From Patescibacteria group bacterium (GTDB lineage Bacteria; Patescibacteriota; Microgenomatia; Daviesbacterales; UBA10151), in the NCBI GenBank assembly GCA_943356485.1, contig CALRFD010000003.1:101815-163457 (forward strand): 61,643 nucleotides of DNA, read 5' to 3'. Below are positions 37,368 through 46,372 of the stretch, one piece after another (within the stretch, counting starts at the first letter, position 1; the number at the start of each line of letters is the position of its first letter). The position numbers and the translations under genes were made by a program. The notes below the pieces were generated by a model. The model saw nothing but the letters and a program-made list of their open reading frames with translations, did not search any database and was not told where the DNA came from.

Positions 37368-37917
37368 TCAAATTAGATTAAACAGGAATCAAGGTTTTAC
37401 CCTTGTTGAGCTGCTTGTGGTCATTTCTATTATTGGAGTTTTAGCCGCAGTAATTACCTTCGTGATTAATCCCTTAGAATTGCTCAGAAGAAGCAGGGAT
37501 TCAAACAGGCTTAGGGATTTAGATAGTTTATCCCAAGCGATCAATGTGGCTTTGCAAGAAGGATCTTTATCTTCCAGTTATATAGCTACTATATTATGTA
37601 AAGAATCAGGAGAATACCCATGTGTGGGAAAATCTGATGCTGAAACTAGAATGACTGATGGTACTGGCTGGGTTAAAGTAAATTTTGCTTCCCAGAAAGC
37701 ATTAAGTATTCCTACTCTTCCAATAGATCCCACCAATAATAATGAATACCATTACACATATTGTGCAGATAATGACTCGTTTGAATTAGATACTACTTTA
37801 GAATCAGATAAATTTAGAGCTCAATCTGCTATGGACGGAGGAGATACAGCAGATTATTATGAAACAGGATCAAATCTAAACCTGATAGCTAATTCAGGTG
37901 GAAGTTGTGAATATTAA
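37348..37917 (+). CDS. type IV pilin-like / pseudopilin protein
   Basis: Prepilin N-terminal motif GFTLVELLVVISIIGVLAAV. Confidence 0.7.
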   Translation: MFNLTFNQIRLNRNQGFTLVELLVVISIIGVLAAVITFVINPLELLRRSRDSNRLRDLDSLSQAINVALQEGSLSSSYIATILCKESGEYPCVGKSDAETRMTDGTGWVKVNFASQKALSIPTLPIDPTNNNEYHYTYCADNDSFELDTTLESDKFRAQSAMDGGDTADYYETGSNLNLIANSGGSCEY

Positions 37918-38195
37918 GATAGTTTTCTTCTTTTATTTAGTTCTTTAACAATATCTCTTGGTGTTATTTTGAAAAAACTCATCATAACTAGCAAGTGAAA
38001 AAATAAATCTGCAATCTCTGAAATAAGCCTTTCTTTACTTTCATTTTTTGCAGCAATAATTACCTCTGTTGATTCCTCACCAACTTTTTGAATTATTCTA
38101 TCTCCTCCTCTTTTAAACAAAGAGGCAACATAAGAATTTTCTGGCATTTTCTTTTTACGATCTTCGATTATTTTATAAAGTTCTTCTAAATTCAT
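37914..38195 (-). CDS. hisE: phosphoribosyl-ATP pyrophosphatase
   Basis: SYVASLF..G...I.QKVGEESTEVIIAA...SEIADLFFHLLVM. Confidence 0.8.
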   Translation of the reverse strand: MNLEELYKIIEDRKKKMPENSYVASLFKRGGDRIIQKVGEESTEVIIAAKNESKERLISEIADLFFHLLVMMSFFKITPRDIVKELNKRRKLS

Positions 38196-38506
38196 ATTAC
38201 CTCCTGATAAAAACAAGCTTTATTTCCAGTGTGACAAACATTTTTTCCAACAAGTTCTACCTTTATTAAAATTGCATCTTTGTCGCAATCAACAAAAATA
38301 TTTTTTACTTTTAATTTATTTCCTGATGTTTCACCTTTCATCCAAAGTTTTCTTCTACTTCTGCTCCAAAAATATACCAATCCTGTTTTTAAGGTTTCTT
38401 GCAAAGCTTCCTTATTTATATAGCCAAGCATTAGAACCTCATTACTCTTATAATCTTGTATAACAGCAGGGATAAGTCCATTACTTTTTTCAAAGTTGAT
38501 TTTCAT
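38192..38506 (-). CDS. hisI: phosphoribosyl-AMP cyclohydrolase
   Basis: LIPAVIQD...SRSRRKLWMKGETSGN...DCDKDAILIKV..G..CHTG. Confidence 0.9.
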   Translation of the reverse strand: MKINFEKSNGLIPAVIQDYKSNEVLMLGYINKEALQETLKTGLVYFWSRSRRKLWMKGETSGNKLKVKNIFVDCDKDAILIKVELVGKNVCHTGNKACFYQEVI

Positions 38507-38509
38507 AAT

Positions 38510-39265
38510 TTAACTCCTCATTGGAATATTTTTTCTTCTTAAATAATTTTTTAAATCTCCAATAGTTAAATCACCAAAGTGGAACAAAGAAGCAGCTAGT
38601 GCTGCATCAGCAGATCCTTTATTAAAAACATCAAGAAAATCCTCAAGTTTTCCAGCTCCACCGGATGCAATTACTGGCACACTCACAACTTTAGAAATAT
38701 TTTTAGTTAGTTCCAGATCATACCCATTCTTGGTACCATCTCTGTCCATACTAGTTAATAAAATTTCACCAGCACCTTTTCTTACCCCTTCTTTAGCCCA
38801 CTCAATTGCATCTAATCCAGTTGCAGTTCTTCCTCCATTAATAAATACTTCCCAACCTTTCTCATTTTTCTTTGCATCAATTGCTAAAACAATACACTGG
38901 TTACCAAATATCTTTGCTGCTCCTTTAATAAGTTCAGGATTTTTAACAGCACTTGTATTTAAAGACACCTTATCTGCACCTGCCAGCAGAATATTTTGTA
39001 TATCTTCAATAGATCTAATTCCACCGCCGACAGTAAATGGAATAAATACCTGTTTTGCTACTTCTTTGACCACATCAACCATAGTCTCTCTATTATCAGA
39101 TGAAGCAGTAATATCTAGGAATACTAACTCATCAGCTCCTTGACTGTTATAAAACTTAGCCAACTCTACTGGATCTCCAGCATCTTTTATATTTATAAAA
39201 TTAACACCTTTCACGACCTTTCCTTTATCAACATCAAGACAAGGTATTATTCTTTTAGTTAACAT
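38510..39265 (-). CDS. hisF: imidazole glycerol phosphate synthase cyclase subunit
   Basis: [40 protein letters not shown]. Confidence 0.95.
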
Positions 39266-39965
39266 TTGTTACCTCCTCTAAATTTATTCTTCCTTCATAT
39301 AAAGCTTTACCTACTATAACTCCCTCAACACCAATATCTTTTAGCTTTTGAATATCGGAAACATTAGATATTCCACCAGCAATAATTACAGGAATATTTA
39401 TATTTTCTAATAAGCTTTCAACTGATTCGTAATTTGGAGAAGTGAGAGTTCCATCTTTTGTTACGTCTGTATAAATAAATCTTTTGACTCCCAGCTTTTC
39501 CAAGCGTTTAGCGGTTTCGATAAGATTTTTATCTGTACTATCTAACCAGCCATTTTTCATCAATACTCCATTTTTAGCATCCAGACTTACTATTATTTGT
39601 GTAGGATATTGACTGATTAATTCTTTAAATAATTCTTCATCCTCAAATATAATTGTTCCAAGAACAACCTTAGATACCCCTAATCCTAGAAGTTTATCAA
39701 TAGATTCTTTATTTCTAATACCTCCACCTATTTGTATAGGGATAGTGACCGTTTGCAAGATATCTTTTATAACTTCGATATTATCTAATGCTCCATTTTT
39801 AGCACCATCTAAATCTACTATGTGGACAATCTTAGCACCCTTTGACTGCCAAACTTTAGCAACTTTGACAGGATTATCGTTATATATTTTTTCCTTATTA
39901 AAATCACCTTGAATTAGACGGACACATTTACCGTTTTTAATATCAATAGCTGGGATAATTAACAT
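39255..39965 (-). CDS. hisA: ProFAR isomerase
   Basis: [42 protein letters not shown]. Confidence 0.9.
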
Positions 39966-40558
39966 ATTGCCTCCCAAAAGTTTTTTAATAACTCAAATCC
40001 AATCTTTCCACTTTTTTCTGGGTGGAATTGGACACCAAAAATATTATCTTTTTCTAAAACACTACAAAACTTTTCTCCGTATTCTGTTATTCCTTTAGTT
40101 GTCTCTTTATCCTTAGGATCACAATAGTAAGAATTAACAAAATAGAAATAGCTATTATTAATTCCTTTAAGTAGCTTTGAGTTATTACTTATCTTTACCT
40201 GATTCCATCCTATTTCTGGAACCTTCAGTTCAGTATTAAACTTTTTAACCTTCCCCTTTATTATATTTAGACAATCTACATCTCCTTCCTCACTAAAAGA
40301 AAATAGAAGTTGCATTCCTAAGCAAATACCAAGGATTGGTTTATTAGCTTTAACCTGATTAACAATTAATTTATCTAAACTTAGCTTTTTAAGATTAATC
40401 ATTCCCTGACCAGCAGCACCAACTCCTGGTAAAATCAATGCCTTAGCTCTTTTGATTTCTTCAGGATCATTCGAAATTGTCACAGGAATACCTAGCTTAG
40501 TTAAAGCATTTTTAACACTAGTTAGATTTCCTAATCCATAATCAATTACCACTATCAT
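39959..40558 (-). CDS. hisH: imidazole glycerol phosphate synthase glutaminase subunit
   Basis: VIDYGLGNL.SV, LPGVGA, GICLGMQLL, GVQFHPEKS. Confidence 0.95.
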   Translation of the reverse strand: MIVVIDYGLGNLTSVKNALTKLGIPVTISNDPEEIKRAKALILPGVGAAGQGMINLKKLSLDKLIVNQVKANKPILGICLGMQLLFSFSEEGDVDCLNIIKGKVKKFNTELKVPEIGWNQVKISNNSKLLKGINNSYFYFVNSYYCDPKDKETTKGITEYGEKFCSVLEKDNIFGVQFHPEKSGKIGFELLKNFWEAIC

Positions 40559-41145
40559 AATTTCCCTTTCGTTGAAGGTATCTGATTTATTGCTCTTTGA
40601 TCCAACTCACAAGCCATACGAATTGCCCGAGAAACTGCCTTAAAAATTGCTTCAATTTTGTGGTGCTCATTCTCTCCATATTCAACTTTTATAAATAAAT
40701 TAACTTTGGCATTTTGAGCAAAAGCATCCCAAAAGTGTTTTACAAGTTCAGTAGATAAATCTCCAACTTCTTCCCGAACAAAAGGGCACTCAAATCTAAA
40801 TGAGTATCTACCTGCAAAATCTATAACAACTGTAGCTAATGCTTCATCCATCGGCAGGATAAAAAAACCATAACGATTAATCCCTTTTTTATCTCCCAAG
40901 GCTTTTGCAAAAGTTTCACCTAAAACTATTCCTATATCTTCCACTGTGTGATGTTCATCAATATAAGTGTCCCCAGTTGCTTTAACAGTTAAGTCAAACA
41001 ATCCACCTTTGGCAAAAAGATCCAACATGTGGTTTAAAAATCCAACCGACGTCTCAATTTTTCTTTCTCCCACGCCATCAACATTTAATGAAATCTCTAC
41101 ATTAGTTTCATTAGTTTTTCTTTTTATTATTGCTTTACGATTCAT
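40555..41145 (-). CDS. hisB: imidazoleglycerol-phosphate dehydratase
   Basis: RKTNETNVEISLNVDG, DEHHTVEDIGIVLG, ENEHHKIEAIFKA. Confidence 0.95.
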   Translation of the reverse strand: MNRKAIIKRKTNETNVEISLNVDGVGERKIETSVGFLNHMLDLFAKGGLFDLTVKATGDTYIDEHHTVEDIGIVLGETFAKALGDKKGINRYGFFILPMDEALATVVIDFAGRYSFRFECPFVREEVGDLSTELVKHFWDAFAQNAKVNLFIKVEYGENEHHKIEAIFKAVSRAIRMACELDQRAINQIPSTKGKL

Positions 41146-42695
41146 ACAATTATTCCTCCTTTCATAAGTGCGTTGTAAAAATTACCATTAGTTTGCATAT
41201 AGACAAATTTAACTCCAATATTCTTTGCAAATAATTTATCCGTTGGTCTATCTCCACATACAAAAGATTTATCTTTATTTATTTGATTTTTAATTAGAAA
41301 CTTTTCAACAAGACCTGTTTTAGGTTTTCTGCAATTACAATTTTCTGATGGTAAGTGTGGACAAATAAATATTTCTTTAAACGTAATTCCATTTTTCTTA
41401 AAGATACTAAGCATTTTATTTTGAGGGATTTCAAAATTAGCTTTTGGAAATGAAGCAGTTCCTATTCCATTTTGATTTGAAATCATTATAAGTTCATATC
41501 CTCTATTATTAAGTTCCTTAAGACCTTTAATCACTCCATCTAAAATTCTTAATTTTTCAATACTGTCAATTTGAAATGTATCTTGCGGCTCAAAAATTAA
41601 AGTGCCATCTCTATCTAAAAATGCATACTTTGGTTTGCTTAATATTACGTTTTCGTATACCTCAATAAATTGTTTCATTTGCTTCACAGTTCCAATACTT
41701 ACACGAAGAGTATTTTCTATATTCGTCTTATCTTGAGGTCGCAATAAAATACCATTTTCTTTTAATAGCCTCCCTACCTGATTATTATTTGGTTTAAAAA
41801 GTATAAAGTTAGCTGATGAAGAATAATAAGTTACATCATTTTTATTAAAAAATTCTTCAACCATAGGTTTTGCCTTAGTCATAACTTCATCTACATAGTT
41901 TTGTATTTTTTTAAAATCCTCAAGTGAAGCAAAAGCGGCTGATAAAGCCACCATATTTACATCATAGGGACCACGGATTTTTAAAAACTCATTGATATAA
42001 ATATTTGAAGCAACAATATAACCAACTCTAAGTGAAGCGAGACCAAAAGCTTTTGATAGAGTTCTGGTGACAATAATATTTGGATATTTATTTATAAGTG
42101 GAACTGCGCTAACTCCTGAAAATTCAAAATATGCCTCATCAACCAATACGATAGAGTTTGAAGCTTTTTGTGCAATTTTTTTAATATCATTAATTGATAC
42201 CAAAGTTCCTGTGGGGTTATTAGGGTTACAAACTACAATGAGTTTTACCGATTTATTAATCATTCCTAATACCTCATTAATAGGAAATGATAAATCTGCT
42301 TTTTTGTATAAAGGAGTTAGTATTTTATTTCCCATTATTTGAGCAGATTGATAAAACATTGCAAAGCTGGGAGTAGGGATAATTACAGTATCATCCGTCT
42401 TTGTGAATGTACGGAAAATAATATCAATTGCTTGATCAGATCCGTTGGTGATCATAATCTGATCTGCGTTTACACCTACATATTTAGCCAACTTTTTCTC
42501 AAGGCCACCATATTCTGGATAAACCTGTAATTTATTTGTTGTCAAAAAGTCCTGAATAGCTTTTTGTACCTTTAATGGAGGTGGGAGAGTTCGCTCATTA
42601 AAATCCAATAGTATTCCACTAAATCCACGCCGTCCCGAAAGTGGCGGATTATATGATTTCATTTCTTTAATTCTTTGTAATGCTATATTTTTCAT
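41142..42695 (-). CDS. hisC: histidinol-phosphate aminotransferase fused to a HAD-type histidinol-phosphatase domain
   Basis: N-terminal class-II aminotransferase (NPNNPTG, SKAFGLASLRVGY). C-terminal about 160 aa with FLDRDGTL (DxDxT) and CNCRKPK as in HisB-N/GmhB phosphatases. Confidence 0.8.
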   Translation of the reverse strand: MKNIALQRIKEMKSYNPPLSGRRGFSGILLDFNERTLPPPLKVQKAIQDFLTTNKLQVYPEYGGLEKKLAKYVGVNADQIMITNGSDQAIDIIFRTFTKTDDTVIIPTPSFAMFYQSAQIMGNKILTPLYKKADLSFPINEVLGMINKSVKLIVVCNPNNPTGTLVSINDIKKIAQKASNSIVLVDEAYFEFSGVSAVPLINKYPNIIVTRTLSKAFGLASLRVGYIVASNIYINEFLKIRGPYDVNMVALSAAFASLEDFKKIQNYVDEVMTKAKPMVEEFFNKNDVTYYSSSANFILFKPNNNQVGRLLKENGILLRPQDKTNIENTLRVSIGTVKQMKQFIEVYENVILSKPKYAFLDRDGTLIFEPQDTFQIDSIEKLRILDGVIKGLKELNNRGYELIMISNQNGIGTASFPKANFEIPQNKMLSIFKKNGITFKEIFICPHLPSENCNCRKPKTGLVEKFLIKNQINKDKSFVCGDRPTDKLFAKNIGVKFVYMQTNGNFYNALMKGGIIV

Positions 42696-42699
42696 ATTT

Positions 42700-43986
42700 T
42701 TAAAACCTTATTGATACAGAATTTTTGTGAGCTGGTAATTGCTCAACTGTTGCAACTGTTTCAATCGTTTCTTTAATTTTTAACAATCCATCTTTGGTAC
42801 ACTTTTGCACTTGCATCCATTTTCCAAATGCATCAACCCCTAGAGGTGGATACATTTTTGCCATACCACCTGTTGGTAAAACGTGATTCGCTCCAGTTGC
42901 ATAATCTCCACTGGATTTAGATGTATAGTCTCCTAAGAAAACTGATCCAGCATTAGTTATTTTTGAAACTTTCTTTTCTGGATTTTTAGTCATAATTTCC
43001 AAATGCTCAGGCGCATATTCATTACTAAACTTTATTGCCTCGTCTAAGCTTTCAACCAAAGCAATAAGGCCATATTTAGTTAAGGATTCTTTAGCTCTAT
43101 CTTGAGTAGAGAGTGCAGGTAATTGTTTTTCAATTTCTTTGATAGTTTGTTCTGCTATCTCTTTTGAGGTTGTTAAAAGAACACAAGCAGAATCTCCTCC
43201 GTGTTCACCATCTGCCAGTAAATCGGCTGCAATAAATTTAGGATTTGCTGTCTCATCTGCAATAATAAAAACTTCAGAAGGCCCAGCTGGCATATCAATT
43301 GCAATTTTTTCTAAAGCAAGGATTTTTGCTGCTGTTACGTAGATATTTCCTGCTCCGAATATTTTATAGACACTAGGAATTGTTTCCGTTCCATAAAGCA
43401 TTGCAGCAATGGCTTCAGCTCCACCTACTTTATAAATCCTTTTAATATCCAACATTTCTGCTGCAAGTAAAACAACTGGATTAATTTGTCCATTTGATTG
43501 TGGGGGAGTACAGACAATAATTTCTTTACAACCAGCAATTTTGGCAGGTATTGCTGTCATTAAAAGTGATGAAGGATAAACAGCTTTTCCTCCTGGAATA
43601 TATAATCCTACTTTTTCAATCGCTCTCCATTCTCTCCATACTTCTATTCCCCTTTCAGTTTCTACTATATTATCTTTCTTCGCTTTCAGTTGGTTTTTAC
43701 ATACTTGAGTGATATTTTTGATCATTTGTCGAAGTCCAAATATGACTTGAATATCAACTTCATTGTAAGCTTTATCTAATTCTTCCTTAGTGATTTGAAT
43801 AGAATAATCCCCTTTATTACCCGAGAATTTTCTATAGTATCTAATTAGAGCCTTATCGCCATTTTGTTTAACATCTTGCATAATTTGCTTTACCACAGGA
43901 ATAACACTCTGGTAATCACCAGCAGATCTGTTAATAATTCTTTGATAATCTTTATTTGATAAATCTTTTAGTTTAATTACTTTCAT
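42700..43986 (-). CDS. hisD: histidinol dehydrogenase
   Basis: YIPGGKA.YPSS.LM, PSEV.IIAD, DLLADGEHG, GDY..G.NHVLPT. Start moved to MKVIKL behind an AAGGAG RBS (ORF track 42700..44109). Confidence 0.9.
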   Translation of the reverse strand: MKVIKLKDLSNKDYQRIINRSAGDYQSVIPVVKQIMQDVKQNGDKALIRYYRKFSGNKGDYSIQITKEELDKAYNEVDIQVIFGLRQMIKNITQVCKNQLKAKKDNIVETERGIEVWREWRAIEKVGLYIPGGKAVYPSSLLMTAIPAKIAGCKEIIVCTPPQSNGQINPVVLLAAEMLDIKRIYKVGGAEAIAAMLYGTETIPSVYKIFGAGNIYVTAAKILALEKIAIDMPAGPSEVFIIADETANPKFIAADLLADGEHGGDSACVLLTTSKEIAEQTIKEIEKQLPALSTQDRAKESLTKYGLIALVESLDEAIKFSNEYAPEHLEIMTKNPEKKVSKITNAGSVFLGDYTSKSSGDYATGANHVLPTGGMAKMYPPLGVDAFGKWMQVQKCTKDGLLKIKETIETVATVEQLPAHKNSVSIRF

Positions 43987-43994
43987 ATTTCTCC

Positions 43995-44867
43995 TTAAAT
44001 AATTTTCTCTATTGGCAAAACAATTATTCCTTGTGCACCAATATTTTTTAGTTTTTCTATTGTTTCCCAAAAGACCTGTTCTTTGATAACTGTTTGAATT
44101 GATATCCAACCTGTTTTTGCAAGTGGAGCAATGGTTGGAGATTTAAGACCAGGGACTATTTTCTTTATTTTAGGTAGTAAGTCTTTGGGAGCATTCATCA
44201 TTACATATTTGTAATCCTTAGCTGATAACACACCTTTAAATCTGGTGAGCAACTTTTCCACTAAAATTTTTCTTCCGTTTAATAAACTCTTTTCATTTGC
44301 TACTAAAACCGCTTCAGATTCGTATATTTTGGTAAGCATTCTTAAATCATTCAAAGCAAGAGTACTTCCTGTTGAAGTAAGGTCAACTATAGCTTCTGCT
44401 ACTCCTAGAGCTGGAGCAATTTCTACCGAACCACTAATTTTAACTACTTCTATTGATATGTTATTCTCTTTGAAAAACTTTTTTGTAGACTCTGGATACG
44501 AGGTCGCAATAGTCTTACCTTTTAGATCAGATATATCTTTAACCTCTGAATCCTTAGGCACTGCTACCATTAGGGAGCAGAAACCATATCTTAGATTAAG
44601 AAGTTTCTTAACCTTAGGTCTTTCTTCGTTTAGTATATTTTGACCTAAAATACCCAGGTCCACGGTTCCAGATGCTACATAGTCAGGAATATCATCGTCT
44701 CTGACATATAAAATTTCTAAGGGAAAATTTCTGCATACAGAAAATAGCCTTTGTTTGTAACTTTCAAACTCAAGACCTGATTTCCTTAGGAATTCAAGCG
44801 TCTCTTCAGTTAAACGCCCTCCTTTTTGTATTGCTAGTTTTAATTTTTTACTATCTAAATTTGCCAT
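43995..44867 (-). CDS. hisG: ATP phosphoribosyltransferase, long form
   Basis: LKLAIQKGGRL, RDDDIPDYV..G..DLGI.G, DLTSTGSTL, plus a C-terminal regulatory domain. Confidence 0.9.
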   Translation of the reverse strand: MANLDSKKLKLAIQKGGRLTEETLEFLRKSGLEFESYKQRLFSVCRNFPLEILYVRDDDIPDYVASGTVDLGILGQNILNEERPKVKKLLNLRYGFCSLMVAVPKDSEVKDISDLKGKTIATSYPESTKKFFKENNISIEVVKISGSVEIAPALGVAEAIVDLTSTGSTLALNDLRMLTKIYESEAVLVANEKSLLNGRKILVEKLLTRFKGVLSAKDYKYVMMNAPKDLLPKIKKIVPGLKSPTIAPLAKTGWISIQTVIKEQVFWETIEKLKNIGAQGIIVLPIEKII

Positions 44868-44889
44868 ATTTTTCCTTTCAATCTTTGTG

Positions 44890-44961
44890 GGTGGCTAAGG
44901 AGAATCGAACTCCCGCAACTGATTCCACAAACCAGTGTTCTGCCACTGAACTATAGCCACC
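44890..44961 (-). tRNA. tRNA-His (GUG) with G-1 and C73
   Basis: Hand fold: G-1, acceptor GTGGCTA/TAGCCAC, anticodon loop TTGTGGA, T-loop TTCGATT. Ends 22 nt upstream of the hisG ATG. Confidence 0.9.
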
Positions 44962-44965
44962 ATTT

Positions 44966-45225
44966 TTCCAATAAAAAACCTCCCGTTCATTACCAACCAC
45001 GAAAAATACGTGATTAATAAGGAACGAGAGGCCATAAAAAAAGGACCCCCCGCGGTCCCATCCTTTGTTCTTAAAAAGAGTTACTTCTTAAGCTCTTGGT
45101 CCGGCTCTAGTCTTGTGACTGACAGCGGTCGATATTCTTTGTACAGCTATATCTTTCTGTAGGGTATTTGGCCCTCAGCTCTTGGATCGTGACTCCAATA
45201 CAAACGCCTTTACATATTCAGTTGT
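44966..45225 (-). promoter_or_regulatory. candidate T-box riboswitch leader, His-specific
   Basis: Minus-strand AAAGGAUGGGACCGCGG (45050..45066) against T-box consensus GGGUGGNACCGCG. UGGG matches C73 of tRNA-His. An antiterminator/terminator alternative can be drawn. CAC triplets at 45115..45117 and 45189..45191. Confidence 0.6.
44973..45031 (-). terminator. long intrinsic terminator (T-box terminator helix)
   Basis: Minus strand: CCUCUCGUUCC...GAACGGGAGG followed by UUUUUU. Confidence 0.7.
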
Positions 45226-45231
45226 AAAAGT

Positions 45232-45260
45232 AGTATAACAATAAATACTTATCTTGTCAA
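45232..45260 (-). promoter_or_regulatory. sigma70-type promoter for the T-box/tRNA-His/his transcript
   Basis: Minus strand: TTGACA (45260..45255), 17 nt, TATACT (45237..45232). Confidence 0.55.
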
Positions 45261-45283: not shown

Positions 45284-46372
45284 TTACTTAACTATTTCTT
45301 CTTTCTTATCGCTGCTATCGGTCTTAATTGTTTTAGCTTGTAGTAATTTCCGTTTTTCTAAACTACCCTCCAACATCTCTATTTTTTTATACTTATCAGC
45401 TAATTGCATTTGTAAAGAATCTGTACTCCCATCTTCTTCAGAGATATCTACTCTTCCTCCATTATCAATAAATCTATAGATTAGATCTATAGCCTTTACT
45501 AGTGCAGTGTTAACCTCTTTTGTATCGTTAGTCCCTTCTAGTTTATTTGAGAACTTCTCCATTAACACTCCAACTATTCTTTCGACATTCCCATCTAGCA
45601 GTTTTTCCTCATCCTGTTTCATACCTAAAGAGGCATTTTCTAGTTGTAGTTTTTCTATCTCCAAGTTTAATTTTCTAAGACTTAAAATCTTTTCATAAAT
45701 ACTAAGTAGTTCTTTAACAACTATACCTATAGCCTTTGCAACCAAAACAGCTAGTGCCAGATCTACTACTAACGGAGATCCCTTCTGAATAGAAAATATC
45801 TTAGATTCCTCTGCGGGGTCCTTTGTTAATCTGGAGAAAGCTAATAAAATAATTCTCCATTCTTTAGAATACTTTTCTAAATCATTAAGAGTTTCTACTG
45901 AAGAATCTTTATCGAATACTAATTGTAATAGTTGTTTACCTTTTTCTAATTCTTCACCACCTTGAGTTGCTAGGTTAGTCATATTACTTAGAAGATTTTT
46001 TGTAGTTTGGTTGAAGTTTGTTAAGTTATTTAAAATCTCTTGAACTTGTTGTGCAGCACCAGCAGGATCTGCTTGATATTTTTCAAAGATACTTTCCAAG
46101 GCTTTTTTCGCTTTGATACCTATAAATTTATCTGCTCCATAATCCTCAAATAATTTTAATTTTAAGAAGTCCCATCCTTTTGGTTGAATTTCGGTTTGAA
46201 GCTGCTCAATTTGTTCTTTTTTTTGGAGTAATTGAGCTGAATTTTCTGGAGAAGGAGAGGATTGAGCTTGATTGAGTAGATTTATTAATTCTTGATATAA
46301 ATTGGGGAGATTATTCTCGTTTATAACTTTGTCTATATAACTTAAAACTGAAACAAATTCTTTTAATTGCAT
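45284..46372 (-). CDS. hypothetical coiled-coil protein with one central TM
   Basis: 362-aa ORF; no motif recognised. Its ATG directly follows a hairpin + T-run, so the start is uncertain. Confidence 0.4.
   Translation of the reverse strand: MQLKEFVSVLSYIDKVINENNLPNLYQELINLLNQAQSSPSPENSAQLLQKKEQIEQLQTEIQPKGWDFLKLKLFEDYGADKFIGIKAKKALESIFEKYQADPAGAAQQVQEILNNLTNFNQTTKNLLSNMTNLATQGGEELEKGKQLLQLVFDKDSSVETLNDLEKYSKEWRIILLAFSRLTKDPAEESKIFSIQKGSPLVVDLALAVLVAKAIGIVVKELLSIYEKILSLRKLNLEIEKLQLENASLGMKQDEEKLLDGNVERIVGVLMEKFSNKLEGTNDTKEVNTALVKAIDLIYRFIDNGGRVDISEEDGSTDSLQMQLADKYKKIEMLEGSLEKRKLLQAKTIKTDSSDKKEEIVK

Follow-up and report, generated by a model that had tools for sequence, protein, structure and literature searches.

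Canonical transcriptional T-boxes (Rfam family RF00230) are represented, for example, by the leaders of Bacillus subtilis tyrS and glyQS, and histidine-specific T-boxes of Firmicutes stand before hisS or, in Lactococcus lactis, before the his operon. Genes for transfer RNAs (tRNAs) may also be co-transcribed upstream of a messenger RNA (mRNA) and freed by RNase P and 3' processing, as in the thrU-tyrU-glyT-thrT-tufB operon of Escherichia coli. The present work concerns a leader on the minus strand of a 61,643-nucleotide stretch of Patescibacteria DNA (contig CALRFD010000003.1; the whole stretch is referred to below as the window), which is followed by a gene for histidine tRNA (tRNA-His) and by hisG with the rest of a nine-gene his operon. 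The leader is probably a His-specific T-box riboswitch of an atypical class, in which transcription attenuation would act on one transcript carrying tRNA-His first and the his operon behind it.

Both His T-boxes and the control of his operons by T-boxes are known in Firmicutes and Actinobacteria (PMC9413887). An ultrashort Stem I is known from the translational ileS switches of Actinobacteria, Mycobacterium included (Sherwood et al. 2015, as reviewed in PMC7583486, section 6.2). According to the same section, transcriptional T-boxes generally require a long Stem I with an elbow-binding motif.

The leader resembles canonical T-boxes in having helix A1, a UGGNACC bulge of 7 nucleotides (nt) and helix A2, in the matching of N to the discriminator base of the tRNA, and in a specifier codon that fits the regulated pathway. 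Further similarities are, in relatives, a GA motif in the Stem I base and, more generally, the stem IIA/B pseudoknot with its F-box, stem III, and a strand shared between terminator and antiterminator. Unlike canonical T-boxes, the family of the window leader lacks a long Stem I, an AG bulge and a distal-loop elbow platform, and its specifier lies in a terminal loop. Its stem II is short and without a recognisable S-turn, an extra hairpin follows IIA/B, and the tRNA-binding bulge itself supplies one strand of an additional terminator-like hairpin (T1). The family also differs in its Patescibacteria host, in having the ligand tRNA as the first regulated gene, and in scoring 23–48 bits against the 93-bit cut-off of RF00230. 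With the ileS T-boxes of Actinobacteria it shares a Stem I that ends at the specifier loop without an elbow motif, the retention of stem II and IIA/B, and insertions at the top of A2. Those switches are translational and sequester the ribosome-binding site (RBS), whereas the window has two hairpins with terminator-type runs of six to seven U, and the next gene encodes a tRNA, which has no RBS. Histidine leader-peptide attenuators (enterobacterial, RF00514 type) follow the same logic, with read-through before hisG when charged tRNA-His is scarce. In contrast to them, the window leader encodes no peptide containing His codons, and sensing would occur by direct contact between RNA and tRNA instead of through a stalled ribosome. 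In the E. coli type of tRNA–mRNA operon, the tRNA does not follow a riboswitch of which it is itself the ligand. What appears to be new here is the ultrashort Stem I combined with terminators, the T1 hairpin built from the bulge, the extra hairpin, the host from the candidate phyla radiation (CPR) and the ligand's gene as the first regulated one, while the core and the pseudoknot are known. In the one collection searched, no paper was found that connects T-boxes with CPR/Patescibacteria or with a tRNA gene lying downstream, which is no proof of novelty.

T-box core and covariance models

An earlier note on this DNA, made from the letters alone, had placed a T-box core at 45050..45066. The core is indeed present: the 17-mer AAAGGAUGGGACCGCGG lies at 45066..45050 on the minus strand, and the pattern GGRTGGNACCGCG occurs only once in the window, on both strands and with one mismatch allowed, compared with 0.04 occurrences expected from shuffles.

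45046..45065, minus strand: T-box core, with the A1 5' strand AAGGA, the 7-nt bulge UGGGACC and the A2 5' strand GCGGGGGG

The window core AAGGA-UGGGACC-GCGGGGGG fits the T-box consensus AGGGUGGNACCGCG (A1, 7-nt UGGNACC bulge, A2) and is invariant in 27 aligned leaders. At least about 45 leaders of Microgenomates/Patescibacteria have the invariant core AAGGA-UGGGACC-GCGGGAGG together with its partner CCUCUCGUUCCUU.

The scan with RF00230 that the earlier note had proposed failed on the window and succeeded on its orthologs. In the window, no T-box was found at the gathering threshold, nor at E<=10 on a 501-nt slice, where the only Rfam matches were chance ones to microRNA, small nucleolar RNA and PyrR models; the leader matched neither His_leader nor any other family. 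Among orthologous leaders, the scores were 48.3 bits for L002 (E 1.5e-7), 43.8 bits for L014 (E 2e-6, or 1.6e-8 on 441 nt), 35.3 bits for L018 (E 3e-4), 35.2 bits for L103 (E 3.4e-4), 27.3 bits for L022 (E 0.035) and 22.9 bits for L020 (E 0.5), all far under the 93-bit cut-off. The model spans these leaders from end to end, with the GA motif, stem II, F-box, stem III and T-box core aligned. In the alignment of L014, the GA motif of the model stands opposite AGCGUUUGA...GAGCU, 75 positions of upper Stem I are reduced to 6 nt, and stem II is shortened. The IIA hairpin with the F-box (CCGUUA) and stem III align, about 27 nt form an insertion, and the model's UaGGGUGGUACCGCGaga...cuCGUCCCu stands opposite AAGGAUGGGACCGCGGGA...CUCGUUCCU. 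The relatives therefore have both RF00230 matches and a conserved Stem I with specifier, the joint absence of which had been named as fatal to the T-box interpretation.

A dedicated covariance model (R1) was built from 27 leaders with a structure drawn by the authors. It gives 164.7 bits at 45211..45018 of the window, as expected by construction because the window is in the training set, and no second copy in the window; its E-values are rough. R1 also matches unrelated T-boxes at L104 (29 bits, E 5e-6) and L196. These two, meant as positive controls for the gathering threshold of RF00230, fall below 93 bits as well, so the cut-off is stringent for short T-boxes. On this comparative evidence, the window leader is a real but divergent T-box.

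The matches at L104 and L196, which have A and T at position N, were considered as family members and rejected, being T-boxes of other kinds. The element at L104 (6693–6796, minus strand) is a glycine T-box of about 104 nt ahead of a glycyl-tRNA synthetase gene, on a contig with 30% G+C, and scores 43.4 bits with RF00230. It has GGC in the terminal loop, a UGGA bulge and a terminator, without stem II or IIA/B. By these motifs, it represents a second type of ultrashort T-box acting on transcription, likewise overlooked at the Rfam cut-off.

Decoding domain

The comparison of orthologous loci for covariation, also suggested earlier, supports the decoding domain: the specifier hairpin and the pseudoknot covary, and the T-box core is conserved across the approximately 45 leaders. 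The features of the domain are as follows.

45177..45208, minus strand: ultrashort Stem I, with base helix 45208..45206/45179..45177, a K-turn-like internal loop, helix UUGGA/UCCAA and the 7-nt loop GUCACGA (45193..45187)
45189..45191, minus strand: specifier codon CAC (His), followed by G, invariant in 27/27 aligned leaders and complementary to the GUG anticodon of the downstream tRNA
45161..45175, minus strand: short stem II-like hairpin with the conserved A-rich loop CCAAAUA, covarying, 98% of cells paired, equivalent to RF00230 stem II in L014
45131..45160, minus strand: stem IIA/B pseudoknot, with IIA ACAG/CUGU and loop GAUAU (45153..45149) pairing with AUAUC (45135..45131)
45101..45128, minus strand: extra hairpin, placed after IIA/B and before stem III, in which the UGU/GAG internal loop is conserved, covarying, 80% of cells paired, an insertion relative to RF00230
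45070..45097, minus strand: conserved purine linker AAGAG (45097..45093) and stem III (45092..45070), the latter equivalent to RF00230 stem III in L014

Covariation was counted in a model-fitted alignment of 41 distinct rows, in which standard pairs occupy 85.4% of cells, compared with 67.5% after column shuffles and 38–49% in slid controls; fitting to the structure biases these figures towards the structure. Changes on both sides are seen in 35 of the 47 pairs, and none of 500 shuffles attains any of the observed measures. Five helices (Stem I base, specifier hairpin, stem II, extra hairpin and stem III) and the IIA/B pseudoknot covary strongly. RNAalifold, applied to an unfitted MAFFT alignment, independently gives the specifier hairpin, stem II and the extra hairpin, and pairs the T-box core over a long range with CCUCUCGUUCC.

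A canonical Stem I had been expected and could not be folded by hand because the Stem I of this leader is ultrashort. In all members, it consists of a 5-base-pair hairpin with a 7-nt loop, lacking the AG bulge and the elbow platform. Its base and upper helices covary, with 94–95% of cells paired: the base helix alternates between AGC/GCU and UCC/GGA, and the specifier hairpin occurs as UUGGA/UCCAA, GUGAA/UUCAC, CCAAA/UUUGG and CUGG/CCAG (L022/L028, with a C-C mismatch as the closing pair). The GA motif of relatives, GCGUUUGA...GAGC, is aligned to the model with a 1-nt insertion; the window and some others have GUUUGUA...GAGC. Two CAC triplets had been put forward as specifiers, with preference for the 3' one. 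Both exist, and the conserved specifier is the 5' triplet (45191..45189); the 3' triplet (45117..45115) was rejected, since relatives lack it and it falls within the variable apical part of the extra hairpin.

In the alignment of L014, the stem II segment GAA...AGUA of RF00230 is deleted, and no S-turn can be recognised. Two candidates for its role are a conserved A-rich loop (CAAAAU) and, in the extra hairpin, the UGU/GAG internal loop. Where relatives have an F-box-like CCGUUA (RF00230 aligns their ACGG..CCGUUA), the window has CUGUAC. Stem IIA was misaligned by MAFFT and by the first model in members with a short loop (27% paired). Consequently, IIA and the pseudoknot were scored sequence by sequence. 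This analysis revealed 20 distinct compensatory versions of the pseudoknot helix across the family, including GUUG/CAAC, GUUC/GAAC, GUUUC/GAAAC, GUGA/UCAC, GCC/GGC and GGC/GCC. In stem III, 9/9 pairs changed on both sides.

C73 is characteristic of bacterial tRNA-His. The position N of the UGGN rule is G in the bulge, matching C73 in the adjacent tRNA-His of the window (44890), as anticipated, and in 12/13 loci where such a gene follows the T-box; the remaining tRNA, at L005, has U73, which would form a G-U pair with UGGG. Other specificities were sought by leaving N free in a metagenome scan, and the true family members among the matches listed all have N=G. Where the regulated genes could be identified, they are hisG operons, hisE and a HisRS/HisZ-like gene, together with genes for M15 and M20 peptidases, for which release of histidine from peptides is a guess.

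Antiterminator and terminators

The earlier note had drawn an antiterminator from A1, the bulge and A2, which the folding confirms. A1 pairs AAGGA (45065..45061) with UCCUU (45023..45019), the bulge UGGGACC occupies 45060..45054, and A2 pairs GCGGGGGG (45053..45046) with CCUCUCGU (45031..45024); the whole fold amounts to -12.5 to -13.2 kcal/mol. Within the bulge, UGGG (45060..45057) has the 3' CCCA end of tRNA-His as its predicted partner. Two further hairpins compete for these strands.

45019..45031, minus strand: shared strand CCUCUCGUUCCUU, serving as the antiterminator 3' strand (A2 45031..45024, A1 45023..45019) and the 5' strand of terminator T2, invariant
44973..45032, minus strand: T2 terminator, an 11 + 12 base-pair hairpin (45032..44979) followed by six U (44978..44973), -32 kcal/mol
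45036..45059, minus strand: T1 terminator-like hairpin GGGACC-GCGGGG-GGUCCU (45059..45042) followed by seven U, -11.8 kcal/mol with an A/U extension

T2, the classical T-box terminator competing with the antiterminator, reuses CCUCUCGUUCC of the antiterminator 3' strand and is far more stable than the antiterminator. This part of the earlier picture holds. Its single terminator does not, T1 having been overlooked. The T2 3' strand GAACGGGAGG with a U-run is present in at least 29/44 instances, with variable loops and insertions; the loop is hypervariable and tolerates insertions of 60–100 nt.

The 5' strand of T1 is the tRNA-binding bulge, and its 3' strand lies within the loop of helix A2. 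Because the bulge serves as the 5' strand, T1 excludes both the antiterminator and pairing with the tRNA 3' end. Of 44 distinct instances of the family, 40 have T1, either in the register GGGACC/GGUCCU or in a second one, GGACCGC/GCGGUCU. Members that use the latter carry a downstream AAAAGAC with which the U-run can pair when the RNA is in its antiterminated form. The 5' strand stays constant while its 3' partners vary, which argues for selection on the hairpin together with its U-run. T1 may terminate transcription, or it may act only as an anti-antiterminator.

Only in a sub-group (L127, L159, L163, L170, L189 and L199) is T2 replaced by a hairpin, CCUUGGG/CCUGAGG, that covers the Shine–Dalgarno sequence, as in translational T-boxes. 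Four of these loci (L127, L159, L163, L170) each hold two near-identical convergent His T-boxes, one before hisG and one before an M15 gene of the D-Ala-D-Ala dipeptidase family; both copies have the sequestering hairpin and lack T2.

Locus anatomy and proposed mechanism

All features of the order described in the earlier note (promoter, leader, tRNA-His(GUG), hisG and his operon) were found on the minus strand at the places given for them.

45232..45260, minus strand: sigma-70-type promoter TTGACA-17-(TG)TATACT, 11/12 consensus matches, with an equivalent promoter about 185–197 nt upstream of the T-box core in relatives
44889..44961, minus strand: tRNA-His(GUG) gene, found by ARAGORN and at 63.6 bits by the Rfam tRNA model, body 44960..44889/44890, G-1 at 44961, C73 at 44890
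37914..44867, minus strand: his operon with hisG (44867..43995), hisD, a hisC-HAD phosphatase fusion, hisB, hisH, hisA, hisF, hisI and hisE

From the near-consensus promoter, transcription would start near 45225. The leader of about 265 nt has no coding frame, and its sole AUG runs straight into UAA. The tRNA gene begins 12 nt past the U-run of T2 and is fully canonical, with a cloverleaf, GUG anticodon, encoded G-1, C73 and normal D-loop and T-loop; C-A-C follows C73, so that CCA is only partly encoded. The ATG of hisG is at 44867, 22 nt past C73 of the tRNA.

From this anatomy, it may be inferred that the T-box gates transcription of tRNA-His, and likewise that tRNA is bound, that charged and uncharged forms are discriminated, that T1 and T2 terminate, and that the tRNA is co-transcribed and processed. 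In the proposed mechanism, RNA polymerase would start at the strong promoter and the nascent RNA would fold into the ultrashort Stem I with CAC in its terminal loop, stem II, the IIA/B pseudoknot, the extra hairpin and stem III. A tRNA-His would dock by its GUG anticodon on CAC. If the tRNA is uncharged, its 3' C73-C-C-A would pair with UGGG of the bulge and stabilise the antiterminator (AAGGA/UCCUU plus GCGGGGGG/CCUCUCGU), which would block both T1, a hairpin that would swallow the bulge, and T2, which requires CCUCUCGUUCC. Read-through would then proceed into tRNA-His and hisG–hisE, RNase P and a 3' endonuclease would free the tRNA, and the his mRNA would keep a 22-nt leader. With charged tRNA, or with none, one or both of T1 and T2 would form and stop transcription.

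Several side observations concern the same locus. The pre-tRNA stretch UUGGAAAAAUG (44961–44972) is similar to the RBS and start of hisG, GAAAGGAAAAAUAUG (44865–44884), and in relatives without the tRNA an RBS-AUG of the hisG type directly follows T2; this would fit insertion of the tRNA at the start of hisG, or its excision from there. The 517-amino-acid protein encoded at 42695–41142 of the minus strand has a hisC domain (histidinol-phosphate aminotransferase) fused, on its C-terminal side, to a phosphatase domain of HAD/PNK3P type, which probably provides the histidinol-phosphatase step. Upstream, an open reading frame of 362 amino acids (45284–46372, minus strand; no Pfam match) has its stop 23 nt ahead of the T-box promoter, with no terminator in between.

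Expression of tRNA-His and alternative explanations

The placement of tRNA-His between terminator and hisG, also reported earlier, recurs. A tRNA-His directly follows the T-box in at least 13 loci: the window, L002, L005, L014, L019, L022, L100, L103, L111, L113, L114, L152 and L162. All 13 tRNAs have G-1 and the GUG anticodon. The simplest reading would be that read-through transcripts supply tRNA-His and that the coupling has been selected.

Several points weigh against this account of the leader and its tRNA. The window gives no RF00230 match at the levels searched, and the orthologs stay far below the cut-off. The antiterminator helices are invariant and therefore have no covariation support; they are backed by homology instead. 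The leader has no elbow-binding platform, the motif named as a general requirement of transcriptional T-boxes (PMC7583486). In mature tRNA-His, G-1 pairs with C73, which makes the UGGG:CCCA contact less straightforward than in other T-boxes (TBDB, PMC7778990). If the locus holds the sole tRNA-His gene, a default-OFF switch requires leaky termination, as it would otherwise lock itself off. Close relatives, such as L001 (87% HisG identity), have the T-box directly before hisG and no tRNA, so the tRNA is dispensable at this position. Finally, the promoter scan covered only the sigma-70 consensus, and a weak or non-sigma-70 promoter inside T2 would escape it.

The last two points also favour an alternative in which the His T-box regulates the his operon, tRNA-His comes mainly from its own unrecognised promoter overlapping T2, and the adjacency reflects gene-order conservation only; essential tRNAs are, moreover, usually constitutive. 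This alternative is unlikely, however. The tRNA begins 1–15 nt past the last U-run in 8/13 loci (1 nt in L162) and at most 55 nt past it in all 13. In none of the 13 loci did the consensus scan reveal a sigma-70-like site in the interval from T-box core to tRNA, whereas a promoter with at least 10/12 matches lies upstream of the T-box, about 185–197 nt from the core, in 11/11 loci with enough upstream sequence scanned. The hypervariable T2 loop with its long insertions argues that no conserved promoter is embedded there. In two further loci, L025 (3700–3978) and L021 (3620–3986), tRNA-His stands between a His leader-peptide attenuator (..NSHHTPP.. and ..SPRHHTYS*, respectively) and hisG. In L025, it begins 5 nt past the U-run of the attenuator, which argues for selected expression by read-through.

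Alternatively, the tRNA-shaped element might not be the tRNA-His that the cell uses but act in cis as a processing or stability module, i.e., an RNase P/Z site that frees the leader and sets the 5' end of the his mRNA, or as a decoy. Several orthologous copies with a non-canonical elbow (D-loop without GG, T-loop AGCGUUA), three of them missed by ARAGORN, would suit such a role, as would the different structured element of about 120 nt at the same place in L003, L012 and L024. The idea is nevertheless quite improbable, given the fully canonical copy of the window, the identity elements preserved throughout (G-1 and GUG in 13/13 loci, C73 in 12/13), and the fact that no second tRNA-His was found in the 61.6-kilobase window. 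Moreover, L113 consists of a T-box, tRNA-His and an intrinsic terminator with no his gene, so that there is no mRNA to process; in L114 and L152, non-his genes follow the tRNA. That the leader does not respond to tRNA at all, being a small RNA gene ended by T1 (which, with its U-run, would define a separate RNA of about 190 nt), an attenuator that depends on a protein, or one that uses a leader peptide and has a chance T-box-like 13-mer, would fit the missing RF00230 match of the window but is scarcely credible against the full-length RF00230 alignments in orthologs, the invariant His codon in a loop, the UGGG bulge, the IIA/B pseudoknot with F-box, the strand shared by antiterminator and terminator, and a sole leader reading frame of AUG-UAA, with no run of His codons and no match to His_leader or another Rfam family.

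For the preferred interpretation, a His T-box gating tRNA-His together with the his operon, a stronger form is held only tentatively, at slightly below an even chance. It states that the sole tRNA-His gene of each genome is controlled by a riboswitch for its own tRNA, that this loop has been selected twice (with a T-box and with a leader peptide), and that an elbow-free terminating T-box uses its bulge as half of an extra terminator. Such a loop would be self-referential, positive via uncharged tRNA and negative via charged tRNA.

Significance

T-boxes are best known from Gram-positive bacteria and would extend to the CPR. The elbow platform is thought necessary for fast co-transcriptional tRNA capture (PMC7583486, section 6.2), and about 45 natural terminator-type T-boxes without it make the minimal Stem I length for a transcriptional switch testable. 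The design is also of interest in itself, as the acceptor-binding bulge doubles as one side of a hairpin resembling a terminator, and the gene of the ligand itself would lie under the switch in an arrangement that recurs with two unrelated types of attenuator. For very small genomes, this suggests that the supply of tRNA-His is tuned jointly with histidine synthesis. Annotation pipelines that apply the Rfam cut-off miss the whole family.

Relatives and associated elements

The closest HisG relatives (62–87% identity) come from metagenome-assembled genomes of Daviesbacteria, Levybacteria, Roizmanbacteria, Gottesmanbacteria and other Microgenomates/Patescibacteria, although some of the records are mislabelled; beyond the CPR, Chloroflexi come next. 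The same leader is recognisable upstream of hisG in 16/37 CPR loci and in the window. A metagenome scan for GGATGGNACCGCGGGA gave at least 120 stretches, and the matches listed add at least about 25 loci with the full leader, all with N=G and with CTCGTTCC downstream; family counts that include metagenome loci are lower bounds. A source in Chloroflexi was sought with R1, which gave no match in the 43 hisG loci scanned from Chloroflexi, Bacteroidota and Acidobacteria. In sister Microgenomates loci (L009–L013, L015 and L021–L037), His leader-peptide attenuators take the place of the T-box.

Two kinds of unusual element occur at the position of the tRNA. A non-canonical elbow is seen in the tRNA-His genes of L002 (3911–3982), L005 (3911–3983), L103 (960–1031), L111 (10410–10481) and L021 (3916–3986), which have the D-loop AAAAGUA lacking GG and the T-loop AGCGUUA or AGCAUUA lacking UUC, and score 39–51 bits with the Rfam tRNA model. 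The odd elbow might be tolerated since this T-box class has no elbow-binding platform. The structured element of about 120 nt stands between the attenuator terminator and hisG in L003 (3860–3990), L012 (560–676) and L024 (3880–4000). It folds into a hairpin and a long interrupted rod, with the apical loop GGAUGUAA(A/C)CC in L012 and L024, has fold z-scores of -2.4, -4.7 and -7.7, and has no Rfam match.

The his operon is accompanied by genes that, judged by eye from their sequence, resemble HisR/YerC of the TrpR family; they lie upstream of hisG in L004, L009–L011, L015 and L027 and as a divergent gene in L023 and L029–L037. In addition, a palindrome, ACATGTTAAC..GTTAACATGT, adjoins the -35 element in L014, L019, L022 and L028, including some T-box loci. 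These motifs suggest that protein repression may act on top of RNA attenuation at these his loci.

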